64,000 nucleotides of DNA, from positions 12,142-76,141 of IMG/VR virus record IMGVR_UViG_3300010998_000026; one strand, written 5' to 3'. Of this stretch, positions 11,666-64,000 are shown piece after piece. The position numbers and the translations under genes are program-made. The DNA comes from a virus. Lineage: Duplodnaviria > Caudoviricetes. Position 1 is the first letter of the stretch; each line of letters opens with the position of its first letter. The notes under the pieces are model-generated. The model was not told where the DNA came from. It was given only the letters and a program-made list of their open reading frames with translations, and did no database searches.

Positions 11666-12384
11666 TGAGTTTGAGAAGGGCTATTATACAAGCACCCACG
11701 AAGTTCCCACTCTTAAAATACTGGTGGTGTGGTGATGACGCACCAGTAAATAATCAATGGATTGATCGTGTTAGCGGGTGGGCATTTACAATATATGGAG
11801 ATAATGTTTATAATAATGATGATAAGCAATATGATTTTATAGAATCATCGCAATATGCAACCGCTACAAAACCTAATACTCCTCCTGGTTTTTCAATTGG
11901 TCATCATTGGATATTTAAATTTGATATTTGGGTTAATCGGTATAAAAGTGCTAATGCAACATACTTTTTTGATATAGGATCTGTAAATAGTTCTTCTAAA
12001 GCTATTGGATTTGGAATAGGTACAAGAACTAATGATAGTGATGCTGGTGCGCCATATAAAATATTAAATTGGAAGATGAAAGGAAATTCAAGTAATCCAT
12101 TTTTAGGCAGTACAGAAATGCATCCAGCGTTACCATTACAACCAATGACTGAATTTGTACACGCAATAGGCTCTTATAAAATGGTCGATGGCGGTAATGG
12201 TTATGATAAATTTATTGCGACGATCAATGGACAAACTATGCATTTTACAACAAATGTCCCGCAAGTTGAGTATGGGCCAACTTGGAGTCCGGATATATTA
12301 CGTATGGCTCAATCAGCATATAATATTGGATCATATAAAGCTTCGTGCAAAATAAAAGATATAAAATTCTATGTAATAGATTGA
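11656..12384 (+). CDS. LamG/concanavalin-like putative receptor-binding protein
   Basis: Aromatic beta-rich ORF without TAG, overlapping the previous stop. Confidence 0.65.
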   Translation: MDVMSLRRAIIQAPTKFPLLKYWWCGDDAPVNNQWIDRVSGWAFTIYGDNVYNNDDKQYDFIESSQYATATKPNTPPGFSIGHHWIFKFDIWVNRYKSANATYFFDIGSVNSSSKAIGFGIGTRTNDSDAGAPYKILNWKMKGNSSNPFLGSTEMHPALPLQPMTEFVHAIGSYKMVDGGNGYDKFIATINGQTMHFTTNVPQVEYGPTWSPDILRMAQSAYNIGSYKASCKIKDIKFYVID

Positions 12385-38958: not shown

Positions 38959-39300
38959 ATGAAATTTTATAGTGAAAAACTAAATCGTCTTTTTGACAGT
39001 GCAGAAGATTGCCAGAGTGCAGAATTTAAGGCTAAGGAACAAGAAAATCTTGATAAGATCCGCAAGGAGCGCGAAGCCGCAGAAGCAAAGGCGAAGAAAG
39101 AAAAGGAAGCCGCAGAACGCAAGGCTATGGCGGCGGAAGTAGATGAAGCGCGCAAGGCTATGGTCGCCGCTCAGAAGTCTTATCGTGAAGCAATTGAAAA
39201 GTTTGTAAAGAAGTATGGTACATATCATTATTCTACAAATAATTTTGAAGATGTGCCAACTCTCTTTGATGTTTTTGATTGGCTTCCAAAACTTCTATAA
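38959..39300 (+). CDS. Hypothetical coiled-coil protein
   Basis: Intact ORF, no TAG, strong RBS. Confidence 0.8.
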   Translation: MKFYSEKLNRLFDSAEDCQSAEFKAKEQENLDKIRKEREAAEAKAKKEKEAAERKAMAAEVDEARKAMVAAQKSYREAIEKFVKKYGTYHYSTNNFEDVPTLFDVFDWLPKLL

Positions 39301-39327
39301 AATTAAGGGTTGAGTAATCAACCCCAT

Positions 39328-39402
39328 GCGGGCGTAGTTCAACGGACAGAACATAGTCCTTCTAAGTCTACAATCTCAGTTCGATTCTGGGCGCCTGTAC
39401 CA
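39328..39402 (+). tRNA. tRNA-Arg(TCT)
   Basis: Cloverleaf, loop CT-TCT-AA, GTTCGATT T-loop, CCA. Confidence 0.85.
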
Positions 39403-39762
39403 AAGTTCCTATTACGCCTCTTTACAATGCGCACCCAATAGGACATTTTATTAAAGGTTTCTTTTATTCTCGCCTTTCCATGGATAAGTAGAATAAACGT
39501 CGGGGCTAATTATGGTCTGCGTGAATGACCGCCATGAGTTCATAGCCATGTAAGTTAATCCGGAGTAATACTATGACGTAGGGCAACTTTTACGATAATG
39601 GAAGTTGTTAGTGGAGAATACCAGCTATCAATGGCTCGGTTTATCTTCGATATAGATATGACTTTGTAATTTCAAGAGGAAATTGCTATCCATACTAAAT
39701 TACGGTTATACATTTTAAGACCCAATCTTAAATTTAATACTAAAATTTAGTATGGATATTAT

Positions 39763-39791
39763 TTGACTTTTCTTTAAAATTCTGATATAAT
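39763..39791 (+). promoter_or_regulatory. sigma70-type promoter
   Basis: TTGACT-17-TATAAT. Confidence 0.8.
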
Positions 39792-39817
39792 AGATATGTA
39801 AGGAGGAAGGAAAGAGT

Positions 39818-39934
39818 ATGTATGAACTTGATGATTTTCTCTGTGAACCGAATTGTGAGGAACTTGAAGAAGAATTTGAAGCTTGGCTTGAGCTTCAAAA
39901 TCAAGTAGAAGTTAAATATTTGACTTCTTTCTAA
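39818..39934 (+). CDS. 38-aa highly acidic peptide
   Basis: Own promoter and purine-rich RBS; MYELDDFLCEPNCEELEEEFEAWLELQ. Confidence 0.55.
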   Translation: MYELDDFLCEPNCEELEEEFEAWLELQNQVEVKYLTSF

Positions 39935-39948
39935 AATTATGATATAAT
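39920..39948 (+). promoter_or_regulatory. sigma70-type promoter driving tRNA array
   Basis: TTGACT-17-TATAAT. Confidence 0.8.
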
Positions 39949-39961
39949 AGATATATGAGAT

Positions 39962-40033
39962 GGGGAGTTAGTTTAGGGGCTAGAATTGCTGCTTTGCACG
40001 CAGCGGACACGAGTTCGATTCTCGTACTTTCCA
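39962..40033 (+). tRNA. tRNA-Ala(TGC)
   Basis: gctgc-TTTGCAC-gcagc; G3:U70. Confidence 0.85.
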
Positions 40034-40037
40034 TTTA

Positions 40038-40149
40038 AAGGCACATACAGCAAAATCAAAGATAATCTTTGAATCGCGAGTTCAAATCTCGTCTCGCCCC
40101 ATTGGGCAAGTAGCATAGTATGGTAATGCAAAAGAATTTTATGTGCCTT
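40038..40149 (+). ncRNA. CAGCAA-family RNA 1 with permuted T-acceptor-D tRNA-like domain (YrlA-like topology)
   Basis: aaggcacat/atgtgcctt closing stem; T arm gcgag-TTCAAAT-ctcgt precedes looped acceptor ctcgccc-catt-gggcaag and D arm. Confidence 0.7.
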
Positions 40150-40205
40150 GACTTTTTTTAAAATTATGCTGTAAGTATCGTAAAGAGAAAATATTTTCTC
40201 TTTAT

Positions 40206-40281
40206 CGCAGATAGGGCAAACGGTTAAGCCGCGGCGCTCATAACGCTTGAGGAAATGGTCCAACTCCATTATCTGCGACCA
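40206..40281 (+). tRNA. tRNA-Met(CAT), atypical
   Basis: CTCATAA loop; cgcagat/atctgcg acceptor; CCA. Confidence 0.7.
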
Positions 40282-40311
40282 ACGGTTGATACCAGACCGT
40301 TAGAAGGTATC

Positions 40312-41125
40312 CGTTCAAGATGAGAAACATCGACGTAGTGATGTTAGGGCGAAAAGGTAGAGGCACAATGATGTCAGAAAACCCTGATGCACTTAGAGTC
40401 TAGCCCCGCTCAAAGGTGGCAACTGGAGAGCGTATGGTTCCAAAACACCAATAAGTGCGGCGTAAGCTACCGATGGTACAGGTGCGGTAAGTAAAACCTG
40501 TTAAAACCTTATTCACAGGTCGTCAATCATCGTTAGATTGGGATGGCAACCTGATAGCCAAAGTAATTACTAGTTATCGAAAAAGTGGAAATGAATCGTT
40601 TTCACAACTAGTTGTATGGATGTAATGCGAGATTCTCATTACATAACGCTATGGACATGGCTCCGCCAGGGATGACGGGAAGCGCATAGTATGGTGCCCA
40701 AATGCTCAATGTATTAGCTTTTGAAAAGCAAAGCTGGCTTGCAAGCAGCTATACAAGCAAAGTGAAGAATGGGCTAAATGGAGTTTGAAGAACAGCCAAT
40801 TAAATCTAGGAGAGACCTAGTATAAATAAGTGAGTCCATTCTGTGAAATGGTTATAAAAGGCAACGACAGGACGTTAGATTTTCCAAACTAAGCCTTTCA
40901 AAAAATGGGATGGGAAAATTAGTGACCTTACACTTAAAAAGGATGCCGAAAAACGGGATGGAAGGAAAGTAATGGGTGAAGTCCTTACTGATTGTCGATA
41001 AATCAGAAAAGCGGTGGAAGGGCCCTCCGCACCCGTCACAATGTGTAGGTAAATGCGACCCGACGGATATGGGGTATGGGTGAAAGCTAACCCATAATTA
41101 CGATTGCTTGATCAACAGTTGAACG
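40312..41125 (+). ncRNA. Large (~810 nt) candidate structured ncRNA, family not identified
   Basis: No long ORF; GC-elevated; many hairpins; ends pair cgttcaa/ttgaacg. Confidence 0.55.
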
Positions 41126-41196
41126 CAGTATGAGTGGATGAATTTCCCTCCCCAGTAGAGTGACTTCGCGTCTGGGTTATCAAAACGCGCAGTTAT

Positions 41197-41256
41197 GCTC
41201 TGATAGTGTAATGGAAAGCACGCCCGGAAGGATTGGTTCGATTCCAATGAAGAGCA
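41197..41256 (+). pseudogene. tRNA-like RNA lacking anticodon arm
   Basis: D arm and attgg-TTCGATT-ccaat T arm, only about 10 nt between them. Confidence 0.55.
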
Positions 41257-41407
41257 AACAGTTGACACGTATCTGTGTAAAAATGTGAGAAGCAAAGTCG
41301 ATGAAAAACAAAGATTAAAAGTTTAAAAAAAGTTTGTTATTATTATTGGCGTAATAATAACTAGTCGGCGGCGTTTCGCTATTCCGGTGCGCCAACACTG
41401 GAATTAT

Positions 41408-41480
41408 GCCCGCATCGAATAATTGGTTAGTTCGTCACCCTTTCAAGGTGAAAATTCCGGATCGTTCCCGGATGTGGGTA
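41408..41480 (+). tRNA. tRNA-Glu(TTC)
   Basis: tcacc-CTTTCAA-ggtga. Confidence 0.8.
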
Positions 41481-41486
41481 TTATAG

Positions 41487-41562
41487 GGTGCATTAGTTTA
41501 ATTGGTTAAATCCCCAGTCTGTCACACTGGAAACACGAGTTCAAATCTCGTATGCACCGCCA
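41487..41562 (+). tRNA. tRNA-Asp(GTC)
   Basis: ccagt-CTGTCAC-actgg; CCA. Confidence 0.9.
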
Positions 41563-41832
41563 TTTGCATCACCTCCTTAATGATGCAACTCTTAACACGA
41601 ATTTAGCACTTAAACTACCATCGGCACGTCCAAATATCGAAGCAAGTTTCTGAGCAGCCCTCTTCGAGGCACGTGATATGTGGCTTAGCGGAAAAGAGTA
41701 TAAATGAAGCGAAGTAAAGTGCAGTGCGCGGCTACACACTATAACAATATGGTGCCTGTAATGGAGTCAAATGCACCCCTTATAAGGGAGACAACCATAA
41801 TAGCCCATGCCGAGGGTGTGCTCGGCTTTTAT

Positions 41833-41939
41833 GTGGCAACCAGTAAGCGACCAAAGTAATGCTTACGCGGGAGAGTTGTTAGATGTTTTTGCCGACGGGC
41901 CGTCTAACACTGTAAGTTCAAATCTTACTTGCTACACCA
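41833..41939 (+). ncRNA. tRNA-like RNA with G3:U70 acceptor, T arm and CCA but no canonical anticodon arm
   Basis: gtggcaa/ttgctac-A-CCA; gtaag-TTCAAAT-cttac; long internal helix. Confidence 0.65.
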
Positions 41940-41948
41940 TAGCCCATA

Positions 41949-42073
41949 AGACGGGTCAGCAATTTTTTTCTTTGAAAATAATTCTGTAAAATTAAGGCGA
42001 GGGTTCGATTCCCTCCGTGGTCGGGTGGGCTCCGGCCGCGTGGTGTAGTTGGTCGCATTAAAAAAGACCGTCT
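41949..42073 (+). ncRNA. CAGCAA-family RNA 2 containing circularly permuted tRNA with GTA anticodon
   Basis: agacgg/ccgtct stem; order anticodon arm (CTGTAAA), T arm, looped acceptor, D arm. Confidence 0.7.
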
Positions 42074-42100
42074 AGTTTATTTTTTTTATATGGTGATAAT

Positions 42101-46104: not shown

Positions 46105-46178
46105 AGATACGTCAGCAATTTTTCTTCTCAAGCGGTATTTTGAAGCACCGGGTCGGCTCCGGGAAGATAAGCGTATCT
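46105..46178 (+). ncRNA. CAGCAA-family RNA 3
   Basis: agatacgt/gcgtatct stem, TCAGCAA, internal hairpins. Confidence 0.6.
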
Positions 46179-47415: not shown

Positions 47416-48003
47416 AACTCTCTGTTTAGCAATTACGAACCAAGTGAAGATGTGTTAGCCACACAGCTTGGGCTACCTGGATAACATCGCAGACCTTGAT
47501 GGGATACTTTCAAGTATGCGACGCGAAACTAGTAATAGTTAGCGATAAGGGAGAAACTCCAAATGTTAAGGGTAGGCGCCGATTACTTCGCTTGTAAATG
47601 CACGATTCCTCACGGCGGCACAATAGAAAGCTAGGTTAAGAGCCAGGCCGAATCCAGATAAGGTGTTGGGGTGGTAGCCAATACAACCTCTGGAAATAAC
47701 CACAAGTCGCTACTGTCGGTGAAAGTCAGAAATGGCATATAAGTGAGGTTTACGGTTGGAGTAGCTCAAGACAGCAAATGAATATGTTATTAAAAAGAAG
47801 CGTTTTAATTCTTTTCATATTGCTGAATGGCTTGGGTGAAACTTGAAGGTAGACAATCCTTCCTATTCTCGGCGCGAAAGCGCGGCTATTAGATGGTATG
47901 AGGTCGCTACTCATGCTACAGCCTAATGGTCAATAGTAGCATAATATACAAGAAGAAGATAATTGGTATGGCGAAGGTCACGCTAATTGTTAAACAGAGA
48001 GTT
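47416..48003 (+). ncRNA. Probable ROOL large ornate RNA (~590 nt)
   Basis: 20-bp terminal helix aactctctgtttagcaatta/taattgttaaacagagagtt; size; GAAGGTAGACAATCCTTC, GGTCGCTAC and GGCGAAGGTC segments recalled as ROOL-like; tRNA-array context. Confidence 0.7.
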
Positions 48004-49052: not shown

Positions 49053-49054
49053 TT

Positions 49055-49130
49055 ACGACGATTACAGCAAATTTTTATAATAATATAAGCAATAATCTTT
49101 TAAATTATGTAGCTAATTTTAAATCGTCGT
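49055..49130 (+). ncRNA. CAGCAA-family RNA 4 with Lys(TTT)-like anticodon stem-loop
   Basis: acgacgatt/aatcgtcgt; ACAGCAA; ataat-CTTTTAA-attat. Confidence 0.65.
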
Positions 49131-49142
49131 GTTATTTATTAT

Positions 49143-49237
49143 AGCCCCTTAGCTCAATTGGTAGAGCACCGGTCTCTAAAACCGTGATATGCCTCTGAAG
49201 CAGGTTGTTCTGGGTTCGACTCCCAGAGGGGTTGCCA
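49143..49237 (+). tRNA. Amber suppressor tRNA (CTA), probably Gln
   Basis: cggt-CTCTAAA-accg; agcccct/aggggtt, G73, CCA; long variable arm. Confidence 0.85.
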
Positions 49238-49242
49238 TAGTT

Positions 49243-49319
49243 TAGACCATTACAGCAATTATTTAATGAATTAAAGAAAATATTTTTGCTACAAATCCTT
49301 TCTCAAATTAAATGGTCTA
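49243..49319 (+). ncRNA. CAGCAA-family RNA 5
   Basis: tagaccatt/aatggtcta; ACAGCAA; weak attt-TTGCTAC-aaat hairpin. Confidence 0.65.
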
Positions 49320-49326
49320 GTTTTAT

Positions 49327-55215: not shown

Positions 55216-55218
55216 TTT

Positions 55219-55285
55219 AAGACCCATACAGCAAATTTTATTAATCATCAAACAGTAAATTTGACACGATATGGCAATGGGTCTT
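55219..55285 (+). ncRNA. CAGCAA-family RNA 6 with GTA-containing anticodon-like stem-loop
   Basis: aagacccat/atgggtctt; ACAGCAA; tcaaa-CAGTAAA-tttga. Confidence 0.65.
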
Positions 55286-55290
55286 GATAT

Positions 55291-55362: not shown

Positions 55363-55398
55363 CTAGTTGGTGAAGCGATAACACCATCTAAAACACTT

Positions 55399-55511
55399 TA
55401 GGCCATTACAGCAAGTTGTCTCGCTCTCAGCGAGGGTAGCCGAATTGGATCAGGCATTTGATTGATAATCAAAATATTTGGGTTCGAGTCCCAACCTTAA
55501 AATATGGTCTA
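55399..55511 (+). ncRNA. CAGCAA-family RNA 7 enclosing tRNA-Ile(GAT)-like body with permuted acceptor
   Basis: taggccat/atggtcta; ctcgct-ctc-agcgag hairpin, D arm, tttga-TTGATAA-tcaaa, T arm. Confidence 0.7.
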
Positions 55512-55582
55512 GTTATTATTATGAATTGCGGTTGAAGTCTTCGGATGAAACCTGCCCCAAAGGATGTGTCTAGCGGGATTAT

Positions 55583-55883: not shown

Positions 55884-56153
55884 ATGAGAGACACCGCGGA
55901 AAAACGCCATAATGATTGGAAAAAAGCAATTCGTAAACGAAATCTTGATCGTGCGCTTGATACGGGTACCTATCATCATGACTGGTATGATAATTTACAT
56001 CAATATTCAAAAAATAAAATTCATTGTTCTTGTCCTCTATGTGCTGAAAAAACAAATAATAAACATATTAAAAATTCTTGGCTTCCTAATACCAATTGGA
56101 GCATGAGAGATAGAAAACAAATTGATAAACTTAATTATCAAGAAGAGGAATAA
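55884..56153 (+). CDS. Basic hypothetical protein
   Basis: YSKNKIHCSCPLC. Confidence 0.75.
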   Translation: MRDTAEKRHNDWKKAIRKRNLDRALDTGTYHHDWYDNLHQYSKNKIHCSCPLCAEKTNNKHIKNSWLPNTNWSMRDRKQIDKLNYQEEE

Positions 56154-56154
56154 A

Positions 56155-56637
56155 ATGAAATCTACTTTATATATTTTAATTGGTGCCCCCGGGTGCGGCA
56201 AGTCAACTTTCGCGGCAAATTTTTCTAATAATGGACATATTGTTTGGGTATCTCGTGACACTATTCGATTCCGTTATCTTGATAAAAATCCAAATGCGCA
56301 TTATTTTGATTTTGAAAATGAAGTTTATAATGATTTTATTAATGAAATTGTTACCGCTTTAAAAAATAACTATAATGCAGTTGCTGATGCTACTCATTTA
56401 AATACTGCGGCCCGTAAGAAACTTACAAATGCGATTGATAAATATTATACAGATTATAATATTATTTATATTGTATTTCTTGCCTCCGCGGAAGTATGCA
56501 TTGAACATAATAAAAATCGTGTTGGGCATGCAAATGTTCCAGAAGATGTAATTCGTGATATGCGCGCGAAACTTACTATTCCAGATAAAGAAGATTCACG
56601 CGAAATAGGTAAGTGGTTTATTGAAGGAGAAGTTTAA
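56155..56637 (+). CDS. AAA_33 polynucleotide kinase (T4 Pnk kinase-like)
   Basis: GAPGCGKST, SRDTIR, VADATHL..AAR, R..VPEDVI. Confidence 0.85.
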   Translation: MKSTLYILIGAPGCGKSTFAANFSNNGHIVWVSRDTIRFRYLDKNPNAHYFDFENEVYNDFINEIVTALKNNYNAVADATHLNTAARKKLTNAIDKYYTDYNIIYIVFLASAEVCIEHNKNRVGHANVPEDVIRDMRAKLTIPDKEDSREIGKWFIEGEV

Positions 56638-57236
56638 TGGGCGAAATTTTTCTCACCAGCGACACTCATTTCGCGCATCAGCCCATGTTCCTATGGGAAC
56701 CACGTGGTTTTCAAAGTGTAGAAGAAATGAATGAAGCTATCATTGAAAGATGGAATAAGGTGGTAAAGCCAGATGATACAGTAATTCATCTTGGTGATAT
56801 TATGCTTACAAATAATAAAATTGGTCTAGAATGTCTAAAGAGTCTTAATGGAACAATTAATATCATTTGGGGCAACCATGATTCGCCATCGCGGCAAATG
56901 CTCATTCATACAGAGTGCCCAAATATTATTACACTTGGATATGCACATATGTTTAAATATGGAAAATATTCTATTTATCTTTCGCATTATCCAACATTAA
57001 CTGCAAATTATGATGATAAACATTTTTCACAGCATGTAATTAATATGCACGGGCACACTCATCAACAAAAAAATTGGCTTCAGCCAGATAATCCATTTAT
57101 GTACCATGTTGGTATGGATAGTCATAATTGTACACCAGTGCATATTGATGAAGCAATTACCGATATTCGAAATAGATGGAATGAAATGCAAAAATTTGGA
57201 GTTCCTATGAAAGAACTTTACAATTACCCACTATAA
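56637..57236 (+). CDS. Calcineurin-like metallophosphoesterase
   Basis: SDTHFAH, HLGD, GNHD, HYP, HGHTH, HVGMD. Confidence 0.9.
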   Translation: MGEIFLTSDTHFAHQPMFLWEPRGFQSVEEMNEAIIERWNKVVKPDDTVIHLGDIMLTNNKIGLECLKSLNGTINIIWGNHDSPSRQMLIHTECPNIITLGYAHMFKYGKYSIYLSHYPTLTANYDDKHFSQHVINMHGHTHQQKNWLQPDNPFMYHVGMDSHNCTPVHIDEAITDIRNRWNEMQKFGVPMKELYNYPL

Positions 57237-57285: not shown

Positions 57286-58788
57286 ATGAATACATTACTA
57301 AATGGGTTAAAGGACAATTTTAATTATACTCACACCGAAAATGGTGCTATCACTCATAAGACTACTAAATCCGCGCTATTAGATATGTTTGGTATGGGCG
57401 GTTCTATGCGTAATCGTTCTGACGATGACGTTATTCTAATGTTTAAAAATGCATATGAAGAAAATCCAGAATACGCGCTAAAGTGTTTATTCTATCTTCG
57501 TGACTGCCGCGGCGGCGCAGGCGAACGTCGTTTCTTCCGTATAGTTATTAAATGGCTCGCGCGCGAAAATAAAGATGCAGTAATTCGCAACATGAAATTT
57601 ATCCCTGAAATGGGACGTTGGGATGACCTATATTCCCTAGTAGATACTCCTGTTGAAAAGGAAATGTTTGAGTTTATTTGCAAGCAGTTAATTCTTGACG
57701 TTGAATGCAACACTCCTTCTTTGCTTGCAAAGTGGTGTAAGAGTGAAAATACTTCTTCTTATGAAAGCCGCAGATTAGGCCAGAAAACTCGTGAAGCTCT
57801 TGACCTAACTCCTCGTGCATACCGTAAGATGCTATCTCTACTCCGCAACCGCATCAACATTGTCGAAACCTTAATGTCTCAAAATCGTTGGGATGAAATT
57901 AAATTTGATAAAATTCCTTCTCGCGCTGGTCTAATTTATAAGAATGCTTTTGCGAAGAGAGATATTATCAAAGAACAGTACAAGGCATTTATGTCTGATA
58001 AGACTACTAAAGTAAATGCTAAGGTACTAAATCCTGTTGATATTGCTAATCAAATTTTTTCTAATTCTTGGCGCACAACTGAAATTGAGCGTCTTACTTG
58101 GCAAAAGTATTGGGATAATCTTGAAGACTATTATGCTGGCCGCGAAGAGCCCGGTATTGCTATTGTTGACGTTAGTGGTAGTATGTACGGTCAACCATTA
58201 AACGCTGCGGTATCTATGGGCGCTTATATTGCTGAACGTGGTAAGGGCCCATTCCATAATCACTTCATCACCTTCTCAGATAATCCTGAACTTGTTGAGT
58301 TTAAAGGTATTGATATTTATGATAAATTCTGGCGCGCTAGAAATGCAAATTGGAATAATTCTACTAATATTGAATCCGTATTTGATTTGCTACTTCATAC
58401 TGCCATTCAGAAAAAAGTAAAACCAGAAGATATGCCTAAGACTCTATATATCTTCAGTGATATGGAGTTTAATCATACTCTTACTTCTAATGAATGGGCT
58501 TATGATATGTGGGGTCGTCGTATCCGCAAACCACTTAGCACAACAGATAATATCAATACTCTAATTGAAGCGCAGATGAAAAAGTGGAAAGCGCATGGAT
58601 ACACTACACCTCGTATTATCTTCTGGAATCTTGATGCTCGTCACGAGAATATTCCTGCTATCGGAGATAAATTTTCCTATGTAAGCGGTTTTTCCATGAA
58701 TATGGTAAAGACTATTCTTTCTGGTAAAGACGGAATGGCTTTAATGTTTGAAAAATTAAATGAGCCTAGATACGCTAACATTAAATAA
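57286..58788 (+). CDS. DUF2828-family Ro60/TROVE-like protein with vWA domain
   Basis: TENGA, RDCRGGAGER, GRWDDL, LAKW, DVSGSM (MIDAS), FITFS, SDMEF, FWNL, VSGFS. Confidence 0.85.
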   Translation: MNTLLNGLKDNFNYTHTENGAITHKTTKSALLDMFGMGGSMRNRSDDDVILMFKNAYEENPEYALKCLFYLRDCRGGAGERRFFRIVIKWLARENKDAVIRNMKFIPEMGRWDDLYSLVDTPVEKEMFEFICKQLILDVECNTPSLLAKWCKSENTSSYESRRLGQKTREALDLTPRAYRKMLSLLRNRINIVETLMSQNRWDEIKFDKIPSRAGLIYKNAFAKRDIIKEQYKAFMSDKTTKVNAKVLNPVDIANQIFSNSWRTTEIERLTWQKYWDNLEDYYAGREEPGIAIVDVSGSMYGQPLNAAVSMGAYIAERGKGPFHNHFITFSDNPELVEFKGIDIYDKFWRARNANWNNSTNIESVFDLLLHTAIQKKVKPEDMPKTLYIFSDMEFNHTLTSNEWAYDMWGRRIRKPLSTTDNINTLIEAQMKKWKAHGYTTPRIIFWNLDARHENIPAIGDKFSYVSGFSMNMVKTILSGKDGMALMFEKLNEPRYANIK

Positions 58789-58881: not shown

Positions 58882-59511
58882 ATGATTTATATGCTCCCCA
58901 ATATTCATATCTCTATAGAAAGATGGAAGAAAAATGAAGAGTATGGAGTTTATGTAAGTACACTCGGGCGTATTCGTCTTATTCAAAATAAAGAGTTTTT
59001 AAATATTCGTATTAATCAAGAGGGTTATTGTGTTGTATTTACTAATAAAGGGCCGCAATTCGTCCATAGACTTGTCGCTTACACTTGGCTTGGTGGTAAA
59101 CGTAACGAAAAATATAATATTGATCATATTAATAGTAATAAACGTGATAATTCTATTAAAAATTTACGCTGGATTGAAGTACAATTAAATACTGATTATG
59201 CCAAATATACTCATACAAATTTAAGGGTAGATTCTATTGAGTGTATTGAACAAACTGAAGATATTATTAAAAAATTTAATGAAGACCCTAATAGATCTGG
59301 CAGTATTTTATTAAAATTATTTACAGAAAATAGAATTAAATTATTTTATAATGATACGTTAGTAAATGAGTATCAAGACATTTTAAAAGCAATTAAATTT
59401 GGTGGGAAAACTCCGCTTAAAAAAGATGTCTTTGATCATATTGCTATGGCAATCAGGGAAAATCAGTCTTATGGTACGTATATGTGGCGTTTTGAGAAGA
59501 AAGAGGCATAA
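58882..59511 (+). CDS. HNH (HNH_3) homing endonuclease-like protein
   Basis: YVSTLGRI, VHRLVAYTW, IDHINSNKRDNSIKNLRW. Confidence 0.85.
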   Translation: MIYMLPNIHISIERWKKNEEYGVYVSTLGRIRLIQNKEFLNIRINQEGYCVVFTNKGPQFVHRLVAYTWLGGKRNEKYNIDHINSNKRDNSIKNLRWIEVQLNTDYAKYTHTNLRVDSIECIEQTEDIIKKFNEDPNRSGSILLKLFTENRIKLFYNDTLVNEYQDILKAIKFGGKTPLKKDVFDHIAMAIRENQSYGTYMWRFEKKEA

Positions 59512-59512
59512 T

Positions 59513-60325
59513 ATGGAAAAAAAACAAGAAATTTTTAACTTAGTAAAAGTCAAACACGAGTTAGTTAAGGCTTATGGGGAAGAATACGGCTATCAATATG
59601 TACTAATGACTGTTTTGATAGGCAGTCAAAACTATTGTTTAGATACTGCTGACAGTGATGTGGATACATATTCATATGTTCTTCCTAGCTATTTAAATTT
59701 TATTACTAATAGTGGCCCACTCATTAGTAAAGAAATTAATTTAGCAGATGGTAGTAAGGCATATATTCGGGATATTCGTCTTGGCCTAAATTCACTTCGT
59801 AAATCTTCTCCTAATAGTGTAGAATGTTTTTTAAGTGCTTATAAAGTTTATGATCCTTTTTTTGATGAAGTACTTAGTAATTATTTAAATAATGACGATA
59901 CACTATTTTATCTAACTCATTGTAATTATAAAAATATGGTAGATGCAATCGCAGGAACAGTTGGCAGTTTACATGGGCGTAATATGTCATTAGGTAAAAA
60001 ATATGCTCATGCTTTACGATTAAAAAATTTACTTGATAAATATTTAAATATCAGTGCTTTTCCTTCTCAATATTTAATTCCTGATCCTAAAGTATTAGAA
60101 ATAGCTTTTAAAGCCAAAAATCATCCAGAAAATTTTACTGAAGAAGAATTAAAACAAAAATATGAAGAAATTAGAGATGATTTAAATACCTTTAAAAAAT
60201 ATTATCAAGTAAGTGAAGCAGAAAAAAGAATTGAATATTTAGCCGAGCATAATATTGATAGATTTGAATATAAATTATTTAATAAATATTTTGAATTAAA
60301 TGGATTAGTATGGAGAACACCATGA
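59513..60325 (+). CDS. Pol-beta superfamily nucleotidyltransferase (RlaP-like)
   Basis: GSQNYCLDTADSDVD, K.SPNSVE.F. Confidence 0.75.
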   Translation: MEKKQEIFNLVKVKHELVKAYGEEYGYQYVLMTVLIGSQNYCLDTADSDVDTYSYVLPSYLNFITNSGPLISKEINLADGSKAYIRDIRLGLNSLRKSSPNSVECFLSAYKVYDPFFDEVLSNYLNNDDTLFYLTHCNYKNMVDAIAGTVGSLHGRNMSLGKKYAHALRLKNLLDKYLNISAFPSQYLIPDPKVLEIAFKAKNHPENFTEEELKQKYEEIRDDLNTFKKYYQVSEAEKRIEYLAEHNIDRFEYKLFNKYFELNGLVWRTP

Positions 60326-63010: not shown

Positions 63011-64000
63011 ATGCCTTATTGTGGATATATTGTTGAAGTAAAAGAACTTCGTAAACATTCTAATGCTGATAGACTGCAAATTGCTACCTTCTTTGGTAAT
63101 GATACTATTGTAAGTCTTGATACTCATATTGGAGATAAGGGAATTTATTTCCCTGTAGACGGTCAACTCTCCGAGCGTTATTGCGCTGTAAATGACCTAG
63201 TGCGGCGTAAAGATGAAAATGGTAAACCTTGTGGCGGTTATCTTGACCCCGATAAGCGCAACATTAAGGCACTAAAGCTTCGCGGCGAAAAATCTGACGG
63301 TCTTTTTATGCCTTTGACTTCTCTTGCTGATTTTTGTAAGATTTCTGATCTAAAGGTTGGAGATACTATTGATACTGTTAATGGTGAACTAATTTGTCAG
63401 AAATATATTCCTCGCGCGAATACTTATTCTCGCAGTCACGGAGCTAATGCCACTAAAAAGGCAAAAGCTAATATTGCGCCTACCTTCTACGAACATGTAG
63501 ATACTGCGCAGCTCGCTTATAATCTAGATGTATTTAAGCCTGGTGACCTAGTACAACTCACTCTAAAAATGCACGGAACTTCAGGGCGTACTGGCTATTT
63601 ACCTTTACTTCATACTAAGCGCACTTGGCTTGATAAATTGTTCCATCGTCATGGTAAGGACTATATGGAATATGGCTATATTACTGGTACTCGTCGCGTG
63701 GTACTTGATGGAATACGCAATGGCGGTTTCTATGAAAGTGATGATTTCCGTCATGCAATGGCAGCAAAGTTTGAAGGAAAACTTCATAAGGGTGAAGTAG
63801 TATATTACGAAATTGTAGGTTTCCAGGGCCCAGATGGAGCACCTATTATGAGCCAGGTTGCCAATAACAAAGTAAAAGATCCAGAATTTACTAAGCTATA
63901 TGGAGACACTACTACTTTTGCATATGGCTGTGATCAGCATGGACCTTGGGAAGAAACTGCAATAGAAGCACCTTGTTGTGAAGTATATGTTTATCGTATG
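63011..64000 (+). CDS. ATP-dependent RNA ligase with N-terminal tRNA-binding OB domain (DRB0094/Rnl5-like), 3' partial
   Basis: HSNADRLQI, KLRGEKSDGL, HVDTAQL, motif I TLKMHGTS, YYEIVG. Confidence 0.85.
   Translation, partial: MPYCGYIVEVKELRKHSNADRLQIATFFGNDTIVSLDTHIGDKGIYFPVDGQLSERYCAVNDLVRRKDENGKPCGGYLDPDKRNIKALKLRGEKSDGLFMPLTSLADFCKISDLKVGDTIDTVNGELICQKYIPRANTYSRSHGANATKKAKANIAPTFYEHVDTAQLAYNLDVFKPGDLVQLTLKMHGTSGRTGYLPLLHTKRTWLDKLFHRHGKDYMEYGYITGTRRVVLDGIRNGGFYESDDFRHAMAAKFEGKLHKGEVVYYEIVGFQGPDGAPIMSQVANNKVKDPEFTKLYGDTTTFAYGCDQHGPWEETAIEAPCCEVYVYRM

Follow-up and report, generated by a model that had tools for sequence, protein, structure and literature searches.

The question raised by this locus is what kind of RNA is encoded at positions 40038–40149 (+ strand) of a 64,000-nt stretch of viral DNA (Duplodnaviria; Caudoviricetes; IMG/VR record IMGVR_UViG_3300010998_000026, positions 12,142 to 76,141), where the arms of a tRNA are present in a permuted order. 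This whole stretch, referred to below as the window, is part of a 76-kb viral contig with a completeness of 43% (CheckV). The element is located in a + strand island (about 39.3–55.5 kb) that contains 28 tRNA genes called by ARAGORN and a ROOL RNA, and ARAGORN called no gene at 40038–40149 itself. The first-pass annotation of this DNA, made from the letters alone, had described a topology like that of the YrlA class of bacterial Y RNAs. The results given below allow us to assume that the element is probably a Y-RNA-like partner RNA of a phage Ro60-like protein of the DUF2828/DUF7788 family, which is encoded on the same strand of the window and would bind the RNA.

Architecture of the element and its RNA family

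The following parts were distinguished in the element:

40038–40047 (+), 5′ strand of the terminal stem, forming 10 bp with 40140–40149 without G-U pairs
40048–40053 (+), CAGCAA 'handle', unpaired and abutting the 5′ strand of the terminal stem (sequence reading)
40054–40065 (+), A-rich 5′ linker (sequence reading and folding)
40066–40070 (+), tcttt, 3′ strand of the anticodon-stem equivalent, with its partner at 40131–40135
40071–40075 (+), gaatc, 5-nt variable-loop equivalent, whose last C could form a Levitt pair with G15 (tRNA numbering by eye)
40076–40092 (+), T arm with a 5-bp stem and the 7-nt loop TTCAAAT (sequence reading and Rfam YrlA alignment)
40093–40099, loop catt and 40104–40110 (+), acceptor-stem equivalent of 7 positions with one C-A mismatch (40095/40108)
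40111–40112 (+), TA, equivalent of U8-A9
40113–40129 (+), D arm consisting of gcat, AGTATGGTA and atgc, with GG in the loop (sequence reading and Rfam YrlA alignment)
40131–40135 (+), aaaga, 5′ strand of the anticodon-stem equivalent, followed by an attt linker to 40139
40140–40149 (+), 3′ strand of the terminal stem, with a T-rich tract after it

The T arm, the acceptor stem closed by a 4-nt loop with one mismatch, and the TA followed by a D arm with GG were all located where the first-pass annotation had placed them. The tRNA elbow positions, assigned by eye, are present (U8, A14, G15 with C48, G18 and G19, G53-C61, U54, U55, C56 and A58), and neither an anticodon loop nor an encoded CCA was found in the element. 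In addition, aaat at 40053–40056 is able to pair with attt at 40136–40139. The body of the element is a circularly permuted tRNA whose new ends are located at, or within, the 5′ strand of the anticodon stem. It is not a canonical tRNA: the Rfam tRNA model (RF00005) gave 15.2 bits on 40104–40154, a loop closes the acceptor, and an anticodon loop is missing. For the same last reason this copy does not have the four arms, including an anticodon loop, of a permuted tRNA gene.

The 116-nt stretch used for folding had a z-score of −3.79, and none of 200 shuffled sequences was equally stable. The Rfam YrlA model (RF02553) aligned end to end (model positions 1–114 of 114) on 40038–40152 with 37.2 bits (E = 3.7e-6 for the 1.5 kb searched and 4.3e-8 per record). 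The T hairpin, the closed acceptor-like hairpin, the GUAGC with the D hairpin and the enclosing helices of the model fall exactly on the arms of the element. This structural alignment bears out the YrlA-like topology of the first-pass annotation, which had claimed topology and not membership; according to the available text of the defining study, the arms of YrlA follow in the order T, acceptor stem (AS) stem-loop and D, with conserved tRNA nucleotides (Chen et al. 2014, PMC4201824). Taken alone, the Rfam match is weak, because it is below the cut-off of 69 bits, the model also matches below the cut-off in 6 of 14 control genomes, and it reaches 20.9 bits on two tandem tRNAs.

Relatives of the element were collected by scanning viral contigs with the pattern CAGCAA, 20–45 nt, GTTCRANTC, 22 nt, TAGC. 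At least 120 stretches were found, holding 121 matches, and the counts of relatives, controls and element-bearing records given in this text are among the matches listed. In 78 of the 121 matches, a T stem with at least 4 of 5 pairs and a capped acceptor hairpin with at least 6 of 7 pairs were present in register. An uninterrupted terminal helix of 8 bp or more was located directly next to CAGCAA in 45 of these 78 matches; among the 43 matches lacking tRNA features, there were 3 such cases (Fisher p = 1.7e-8). For motif and loop tallies, 48 distinct relatives were used. CAGCAA is universal among them by selection, as it was required by the pattern; upstream of it, position −2 is U in 36 and position −1 is A in 37 of the 48, and a G-poor linker follows. 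The sequence of the terminal stem differs among the relatives while its pairing is kept. Among the 48 relatives, 19 have a GNRA or UNCG tetraloop at the end of the acceptor hairpin, with about 2 expected by chance, which suggests that this hairpin is built to stay closed.

The common plan of the family, from the 5′ end, includes the terminal stem, the unpaired (U)(A)CAGCAA, a G-poor linker, the equivalent of an anticodon arm and a 5-nt variable loop, and then the T arm, the 7-bp acceptor hairpin with its 4-nt loop, UA, the D arm, an A-rich linker and the 3′ strand. The element at 40038–40149 has the handle that is the signature of this family, namely a 10-bp stem (about 8 bp or more being expected), an unpaired CAGCAA directly after it and a G-poor linker. 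Some members form the entire anticodon arm as a local hairpin, which often has a 7-nt loop resembling an anticodon loop; in other members, two to five pairs beside the variable loop are made with the strand 3′ of the D arm. A loop of the form N-U-NNN-A-A is frequent in the hairpin upstream of the T arm (for example, in loci L045, L082, L090, L093, L101 and L148). Read as anticodons, these 7-nt loops give UUU, UCU, UGU, GCU and others, and they could be displayed anticodon-loop mimics.

Covariation was analyzed in a MAFFT alignment of 28 relatives, which was made without structure and in which 20 pairs (543 cells) were evaluated. Standard pairs were found in 97.4% of the cells, compared to 63.1% in shuffled alignments and 33–45% with slid partners. 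Changes on both sides of a pair occurred in 185 cells vs 52.6 in shuffles and affected 17 of the 20 pairs. A lack of compensatory changes in homologues, which the first-pass annotation had named as evidence against the topology, was not observed. The T helix (columns 53–57/65–69) is paired in 99.3% of cells, with four of its five pairs changing on both sides, and all seven family pairs of the acceptor helix change on both sides. The D helix is paired in 99.1% and the hairpin upstream of the T arm in 92.5% of cells. The two body-closing pairs by the variable loop (columns 46–47/108–109, corresponding to the top of the tcttt/aaaga helix) are paired in 96.4%, with at least four pair types each. 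It should be noted that the T and acceptor helices were pre-filtered for pairing, and that the D helix, the upstream hairpin and the body-closing pairs were not. Clear homologues with different stem sequences (87.2 and 84.7 bits) were found in two complete relatives of about 180 kb, and a same-sequence copy is present on a separate 8.6-kb viral contig.

For further searches, a family model (R1) was used, in which the CAGCAA positions are included and the terminal stem is not modelled, because MAFFT could not align the 3′ strands. A generic scan for CAGCAA next to any 8-bp helix was also tried and set aside as not diagnostic, with a high background of A/T-rich chance stems.

Link with DUF2828 genes and the predicted fold of their product

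The window contains a DUF2828/DUF7788 gene on the same strand as the element:

57286–58788 (+), gene of a 500-aa protein with a predicted Ro60 fold; Pfam DUF2828 (E = 9.1e-27) and DUF7788 (E = 2.2e-44), phrog_850 'RNA-binding protein' (E = 1.4e-119)

It was found that the element family and such genes occur together. DUF2828 was present in 34 of the 46 element-bearing records and in 15 of the 16 that are at least 90% complete. Among the controls, i.e., pattern matches without tRNA features, it was present in 3 of 41 records and in 2 of the 14 near-complete ones; the difference is significant for all records (Fisher p = 8.8e-11) and for the near-complete ones (p = 1.7e-5). The reverse comparison started from 80 loci fetched by DUF2828 protein similarity alone. 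The R1 model gave 78 matches at E ≤ 0.001 in 49 of these loci, and all 78 were on the strand of the DUF2828 gene. The motif CAGC[AT]A was located at the 5′ end of 57 matches (40 loci), at a distance of up to 1 kb from the gene in 18 loci and up to 4 kb in 29. A scan for the terminal stem at R1 matches near DUF2828 revealed at least 7 bp in 26 of 54 cases vs 11 of 54 for a downstream control; this count is noisy, as one mismatch breaks it.

R1 matches together with DUF2828 were also found in named phages of three host phyla. In the Mycobacterium phage Fezzik, the match (48.7 bits; L175:5528-5642) is located 109 nt after the end of the gene, with no tRNA block there. In the Escherichia phage tootiki, it (46.2 bits) is located about 1 kb downstream of the gene in a tRNA block (L174:8386-8507, a CAGCAA element), and in the Bacillus phage PK-3 two matches (41.8 and 38.3 bits) are upstream of the gene. 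The handle travels with this gene in many phages, and therefore the RNA is probably the partner of the encoded protein.

A single-sequence search of the DUF2828 protein against the PDB gave chance matches only. A fold search was needed because the sequence searches yielded only such matches or weak ones to the vWA part. The AlphaFold 2 model, obtained with an alignment of 33 sequences, had a pLDDT of 90.1 and a pTM of 0.89. A Foldseek search of this model against the PDB placed Ro60 structures at all ranks from 1 to 13 (TM 0.41–0.58 over 520–595 columns). The best match was Ro60 of the Thermus phage phiLo (9kop, E = 1.8e-8), and the others included Xenopus (1yvr, 1yvp and 2i91), human (9nen) and Deinococcus (2nvo) Ro60. 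The predicted model has the Ro60 architecture, a HEAT-repeat ring with a C-terminal vWA domain, and the Pfam TROVE model gave no match to the protein.

The DUF2828 family is widespread: it was found using tblastn in 703 of 50,697 GenBank phage records, including Felix-O1-like coliphages, Listeria, Staphylococcus and Campylobacter phages and mycobacteriophages. Some mycobacteriophage annotations name the protein 'Ro-like RNA binding protein', and the Protein Atlas contains DUF2828 clusters in viruses and Bacillota.

Six further elements with the same handle as 40038–40149 and other cargo were identified in the window:

41949–42075 (+), element 2, divergent, with a permuted tRNA-like body; YrlA 22.3 bits and R1 30.2 bits, both at the level of tandem-tRNA noise, so that its assignment follows from anatomy
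46105–46178 (+), element 3, with an 8-bp terminal stem and non-tRNA cargo (handle and stem reading)
49054–49131 (+), element 4 (handle and stem reading)
49242–49320 (+), element 5 (handle and stem reading)
55217–55287 (+), element 6 (handle and stem reading)
55398–55512 (+), element 7, whose cargo is a near-complete tRNA body, called by ARAGORN as tRNA-Ile(GAU) at 55431–55501 (ARAGORN, handle and stem reading)

One handle combined with quite different cargo points to a common binding partner. Five of the seven window elements are located within 5 nt of the end of an ARAGORN tRNA.

Proposed function, rival explanations and known RNA systems

The DUF2828/DUF7788 gene is surrounded by genes of putative RNA repair enzymes:

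56122–56637 (+), polynucleotide-kinase-like gene; Pfam AAA_33 and Metallophos_2, and phrog_505 and phrog_547, for the pair with the next gene
56637–57236 (+), phosphoesterase gene, directly upstream of the Ro60-like gene
59399–60325 (+), nucleotidyltransferase-like gene, weak match (phrog_388, E = 1.3e-6; no Pfam match)
63011–64000 (+), RNA ligase gene (phrog_968, E = 4.9e-53), running off the end of the window

We assume that the element would be made as a stable noncoding RNA of about 112 nt, most likely in one transcript with the preceding tRNA-Ala, from which it would be freed by tRNA processing. One module of this RNA, the 10-bp terminal stem with the unpaired (A)CAGCAA handle, would serve for protein binding. 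By analogy with Ro60 and Y RNAs, the handle and stem would be bound by the putative Ro60-fold protein (57286–58788); the 5′ strand of the terminal helix is where the protein touches the RNA in Ro60–Y RNA particles (PMC4201824). The other module, a circularly permuted and acceptor-capped tRNA body with the architecture of the YrlA class, would be the effector, which may recruit or distract a tRNA-recognising enzyme. Candidate targets are a defence nuclease directed at tRNAs or, as in Ro60–Y RNA–PNPase particles, a host exoribonuclease. The six further elements with the same handle would be consistent with a single protein that serves several RNAs, and the kinase, phosphoesterase and RNA ligase genes would provide a setting of RNA repair. 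A preprint (PhageMaP) reports that the Ro60-like gp130 of Escherichia phage Bas63, encoded upstream of tRNA genes, counters the ppl defence (PMC11482910). This report and the repair-enzyme neighbours of the DUF2828/DUF7788 gene point to a role in a conflict over tRNAs and RNA decay.

Several results weigh against this explanation. DUF2828 was not found in 12 of the 46 element-bearing records; 11 of them are incomplete (2–83%), and one is a complete 185.6-kb genome. The association could in part reflect a shared preference for large tRNA-rich phages, the controls being only roughly matched. The R1 model scores tandem tRNAs at up to about 37 bits, and weak R1 matches are therefore unreliable; the presence of CAGCAA in strong R1 matches is partly due to construction, because the model contains the motif. 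The DUF2828 gene is located 17.1 kb downstream of the element, on the same strand, compared to the 4 kb typical for YrlA and Ro60. Sequence similarity of the protein to Ro60 is weak and concerns the vWA part (profile search, E = 0.0055 to 0.4), and the similarity of the ring rests on a predicted model. The contigs of four RNA-library runs, compared with 39300–41600, yielded a single 40-nt piece on the element (40106–40145, one run), which is uninformative on transcription either way.

The fold of this particular copy is a further point of this kind. The energy model prefers a local hairpin, aaaga (40058–40062), taa, tcttt (40066–40070), with −32.7 kcal/mol, over the long-range tcttt/aaaga helix with −25.4 kcal/mol. 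The gap is about 7 kcal/mol, and the pair probability of the helix 40066–40070/40131–40135 is 0.0. The first-pass annotation had placed this helix at the position of the anticodon stem, leading into the terminal stem. Its strands are indeed in place and the equivalent family pairs are 96.4% paired, whereas in this copy the energy model favours the local hairpin. The tcttt strand is flanked by identical aaaga strands on both sides and can pair with either, and in the closest relative (L241:5361-5476) all three strands have changed in step, so that both pairings are still possible. By its choice of partner, tcttt may switch the RNA between a closed conformation and a tRNA-shaped one; this idea is only a hint, because it is based on one event in two sequences.

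One rival explanation is that the element is an ordinary YrlA RNA (RF02553), the partner of a canonical TROVE Ro60 encoded in the missing 57% of the genome. A YrlA candidate was defined as combining a tRNA-like domain with GNCGAAN0-1G close to its 5′ end and with a same-strand gene of a TROVE-domain Ro60 within 4 kb; YrlA is bound by Ro60/Rsr and contains pseudouridine 55 and dihydrouridine (Chen et al. 2014, PMC4201824). The element shares the domain order with them, the YrlA model aligns over its full length, the contig is 43% complete so that a TROVE gene could be off-contig, and YrlA-like RNAs have been reported in 22 phages (Chen et al. 2014, PMC4201824). Against this, the score of 37.2 bits does not reach the gathering score of 69. 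In all 14 other loci with a family member the YrlA model was likewise sub-threshold at the elements (31.0–48.3 bits, with the whole model aligned in 10 of the 14), and it gave 38.6 and 32.9 bits in the two complete relatives. GNCGAAN0-1G is absent from 40038–40072 and from all 48 relatives, and CAGCAA stands at the comparable place. TROVE (PF05731) is absent from the 76-kb contig and from all 46 element-bearing records, including the 16 near-complete ones, and the latter contradict an off-contig partner. Membership in YrlA proper is thus highly improbable, and the element is best filed as an RNA of the Y-RNA kind that is not a YrlA member. The likeness includes the paired 5′ and 3′ ends, an unpaired conserved motif after the 5′ strand, the T–acceptor–D order, the elbow nucleotides and the link to a same-strand gene of a predicted Ro60 fold. 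The differences include the motif, the protein (DUF2828/DUF7788, not TROVE), an anticodon-like hairpin that is present in many relatives of the element and is lacking in YrlA, and the presence in one genome of several differently loaded RNAs with one handle. A functionless element, left by the decay of a tRNA or arranged by chance, is practically excluded by the covariation. Descent from a tRNA is plausible, because the T arm is similar to the one in tRNA-Asp of the phage itself, but compensatory changes occur in all arms across the 28 relatives, the fold is unusually stable (z-score −3.79), and an identical copy on the 8.6-kb contig and homologues in two complete genomes exist.

It could also be supposed that the element is a gene of a circularly permuted tRNA, whose transcript would be cleaved at the terminal stem and closed into a circle by the phage RNA ligase, after which RNase P and a 3′ nuclease would open it at the acceptor loop and so produce a functional tRNA. 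In algae, the 3′ half precedes the 5′ half in circularly permuted tRNA genes, with the two halves connected across the acceptor end, and these genes mature into working tRNAs with anticodons. The element has the same order of halves and a 7-bp acceptor. Many of its relatives have an anticodon-like 7-nt loop in the right place, genes of a kinase, a phosphoesterase, a nucleotidyltransferase-like protein and an RNA ligase are located nearby, and the M. smegmatis YrlA, whose acceptor has 7 bp, is cleaved by RNase P and has CCA added to it (PMC4201824). However, unlike the algal genes, this copy lacks an anticodon loop and has a capped acceptor and a conserved handle, and no CCA is encoded. The GNRA or UNCG caps in 19 of the 48 relatives, far above the chance expectation, also speak against such a tRNA, the phage already has 28 standard tRNAs, and the invariant CAGCAA and the link to the Ro60-fold gene would be left unexplained; this explanation is therefore very unlikely. 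Another reading dispenses with a protein partner: the element would act as a tRNA-shaped decoy, diverting defence nucleases that cleave tRNAs or enzymes that modify them, or would mark processing in tRNA operons, and its link with DUF2828 would reflect shared residence in tRNA islands. The position of five of the seven window elements within 5 nt of tRNA 3′ ends, the anticodon-like loops of relatives and the complete genome that has an element and no DUF2828 are consistent with this. But one handle is present on quite different cargo, elements adjoin DUF2828 genes even where there is no tRNA block (e.g., at 109 nt in Fezzik), and the association is strong in both directions, which makes a partner-free RNA unlikely, though less so than a working tRNA.

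A Y-RNA-like partner of the Ro60-like protein, which we consider the probable identity of the element, has parallels in several published systems, compared here as they appear in the available portions of the cited sources. Y RNAs can be co-transcribed with tRNAs, as in Deinococcus, where Yrn2, tRNA-Asp and Yrn1 are found together (PMC4201824), and the operon of the Salmonella YrlA partner also holds RNA repair enzymes (PMC7790460). In the Thermus phage phiLo, a phage Ro60-fold protein (phiRo60) has stem-bulge-stem partner RNAs, Yrl1 and Yrl2, beside its gene (PMC12135203; PDB 9KOP and 9L5Y), and the Ro60, the Yrl RNAs and the host PNPase form a ternary complex (PMC12135203). In contrast to the protein encoded in the window, phiRo60 was deposited as a TROVE-domain protein (PDB molecule name); its Yrl RNAs were picked by a CGAA motif, and the available text describes no permuted tRNA body (PMC12135203). 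In Bas63, the Ro60-like gene is directly upstream of the tRNA block, as in the phage tootiki. The authors of the preprint guess that some of the tRNA genes are Y RNAs, and no RNA is identified in the available text (PMC11482910). Judging by the genus of Bas63, gp130 would belong to the DUF2828 family.

A more distant parallel is provided by the Class I RNAs of dictyostelids, which also have a short terminal stem of variable sequence with pairing kept, cargo that differs among the RNAs, and numerous genes in each genome (Kjellin et al. 2021, PMC7919456). Their 5′ strand is followed immediately by an unstructured motif of 11 nt, with T, C, C, A and A near-invariant at positions 3, 6, 9, 10 and 11 (PMC7919456). 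In the window, the 11 nt ending with CAGCAA (40043–40053) match four of these five positions, the comparison covering the named positions and not the full motif. Class I RNAs differ in being eukaryotic, 42–65 nt long and without a tRNA body, and their known binder is an RRM protein (PMC7919456). In a more tentative reading, the same handle may explain these orphan RNAs of social amoebae. AcrIIIA1, a protein–RNA anti-CRISPR that binds fragmented tRNAs, was also considered and dropped, as the available description mentions no link to Ro60 or a DUF.

While tRNA-mimicking Y RNAs and phage Ro60 homologues with Y-like RNAs are already known, a CAGCAA-handle family tied to DUF2828 is not in Rfam 15. 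No paper on CAGCAA-handle RNAs or on RNA partners of DUF2828 was found in a search that covered main texts, to the exclusion of the supplementary tables of PMC4201824 (with its 22 phages, possibly including a DUF2828 phage) and PMC10690425. The text of the latter, a catalogue of 10,006 viral structured RNAs, includes tRNA-like candidates and mentions no Y RNA or Ro60 (PMC10690425; supplementary tables outside the scope).

DUF2828 is a large protein family of unknown function, and a defined RNA partner, if true, would make it a testable ribonucleoprotein. It would also provide a concrete candidate for the 'missing Y RNAs' guessed for the anti-defence protein gp130 of Bas63, and the mimicry of tRNAs by Y RNAs would extend from a few bacteria to many phage lineages. 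In a wider and more tentative reading, which may well prove incorrect, the handle could be what is recognised in a second, very large branch of Ro/Y-RNA particles, in which the protein is of the DUF2828 family. One ring would carry interchangeable cargo (seven in the window: permuted tRNA bodies, anticodon-like hairpins and a near-whole tRNA), intercepting or repairing the damage caused by tRNA-targeting host nucleases. For annotation, these elements are a warning that the tRNA islands of large phages hold tRNA-shaped genes missed or miscalled by tRNA finders.

Setting of the element in the tRNA island

The features next to the element and the ROOL RNA of the island are as follows:

39920–39948 (+), promoter-like site (TTGACT, 17 nt, TG-TATAAT), 13 nt upstream of tRNA-Ala, identified by consensus match only
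39961–40034 (+), tRNA-Ala(UGC), called by ARAGORN, Rfam tRNA 56.1 bits; its 3′ end is 3 nt before the element
40206–40278, tRNA with a CAU anticodon, Rfam tRNA 43.5 bits, no ARAGORN call
47416–48000, ROOL RNA, Rfam 317.7 bits, within the tRNA island

The site at 39920–39948 matches 11 of 12 consensus positions and has the TG of an extended −10 region; judging by this match, it likely drives a transcript of tRNA-Ala and the element. A near-identical twin (39763–39791, also 11 of 12 with an extended −10 region) precedes a small open reading frame (ORF), and a similar TTGACT starts at the 3′ end of the element. Many short transcription units seem to make up the tRNA island. A 98-aa ORF on the minus strand (39973–40269) is antisense to the tRNA at 39961–40034, the element and the tRNA at 40206–40278 and is taken as spurious. 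A megablast search of 39300–41600 against GenBank phages gave no match, and the DNA runs containing this stretch are labelled animal gut metagenomes, which is cited here as a label and not as a statement on habitat.

Several other unusual RNAs were observed in the island. A 60-nt tRNA-like gene at 41197–41256 has D and T arms and almost no anticodon arm (Rfam tRNA 30.2 bits, with 1 nt in place of 13 model positions). The tRNA-like RNA at 41833–41939, called by no tool, has a 7-bp acceptor, a perfect T arm, an encoded CCA and rebuilt D and anticodon regions, and it directly precedes CAGCAA element 2. A 95-nt 'tRNA-Pyl' with the anticodon CUA (amber-suppressor type) and a long extra region was called by ARAGORN at 49143–49237, and CAGCAA element 5 comes next. 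A ROOL RNA (351.5 bits, L074:39-667) is also present on an unrelated viral contig bearing a member of the element family, and ROOL, tRNA islands and CAGCAA elements may travel together.

Between the tRNA with the CAU anticodon and the armless tRNA, about 900 nt (40281–41189) contain no ORF of at least 100 aa, and an Rfam search of this region gave no match even at E ≤ 10. It is partly covered by RNA-library contigs from four metatranscriptome runs, with summed word depths of up to 777 and flanks near zero, and it may represent a large, abundant and undescribed structured RNA.

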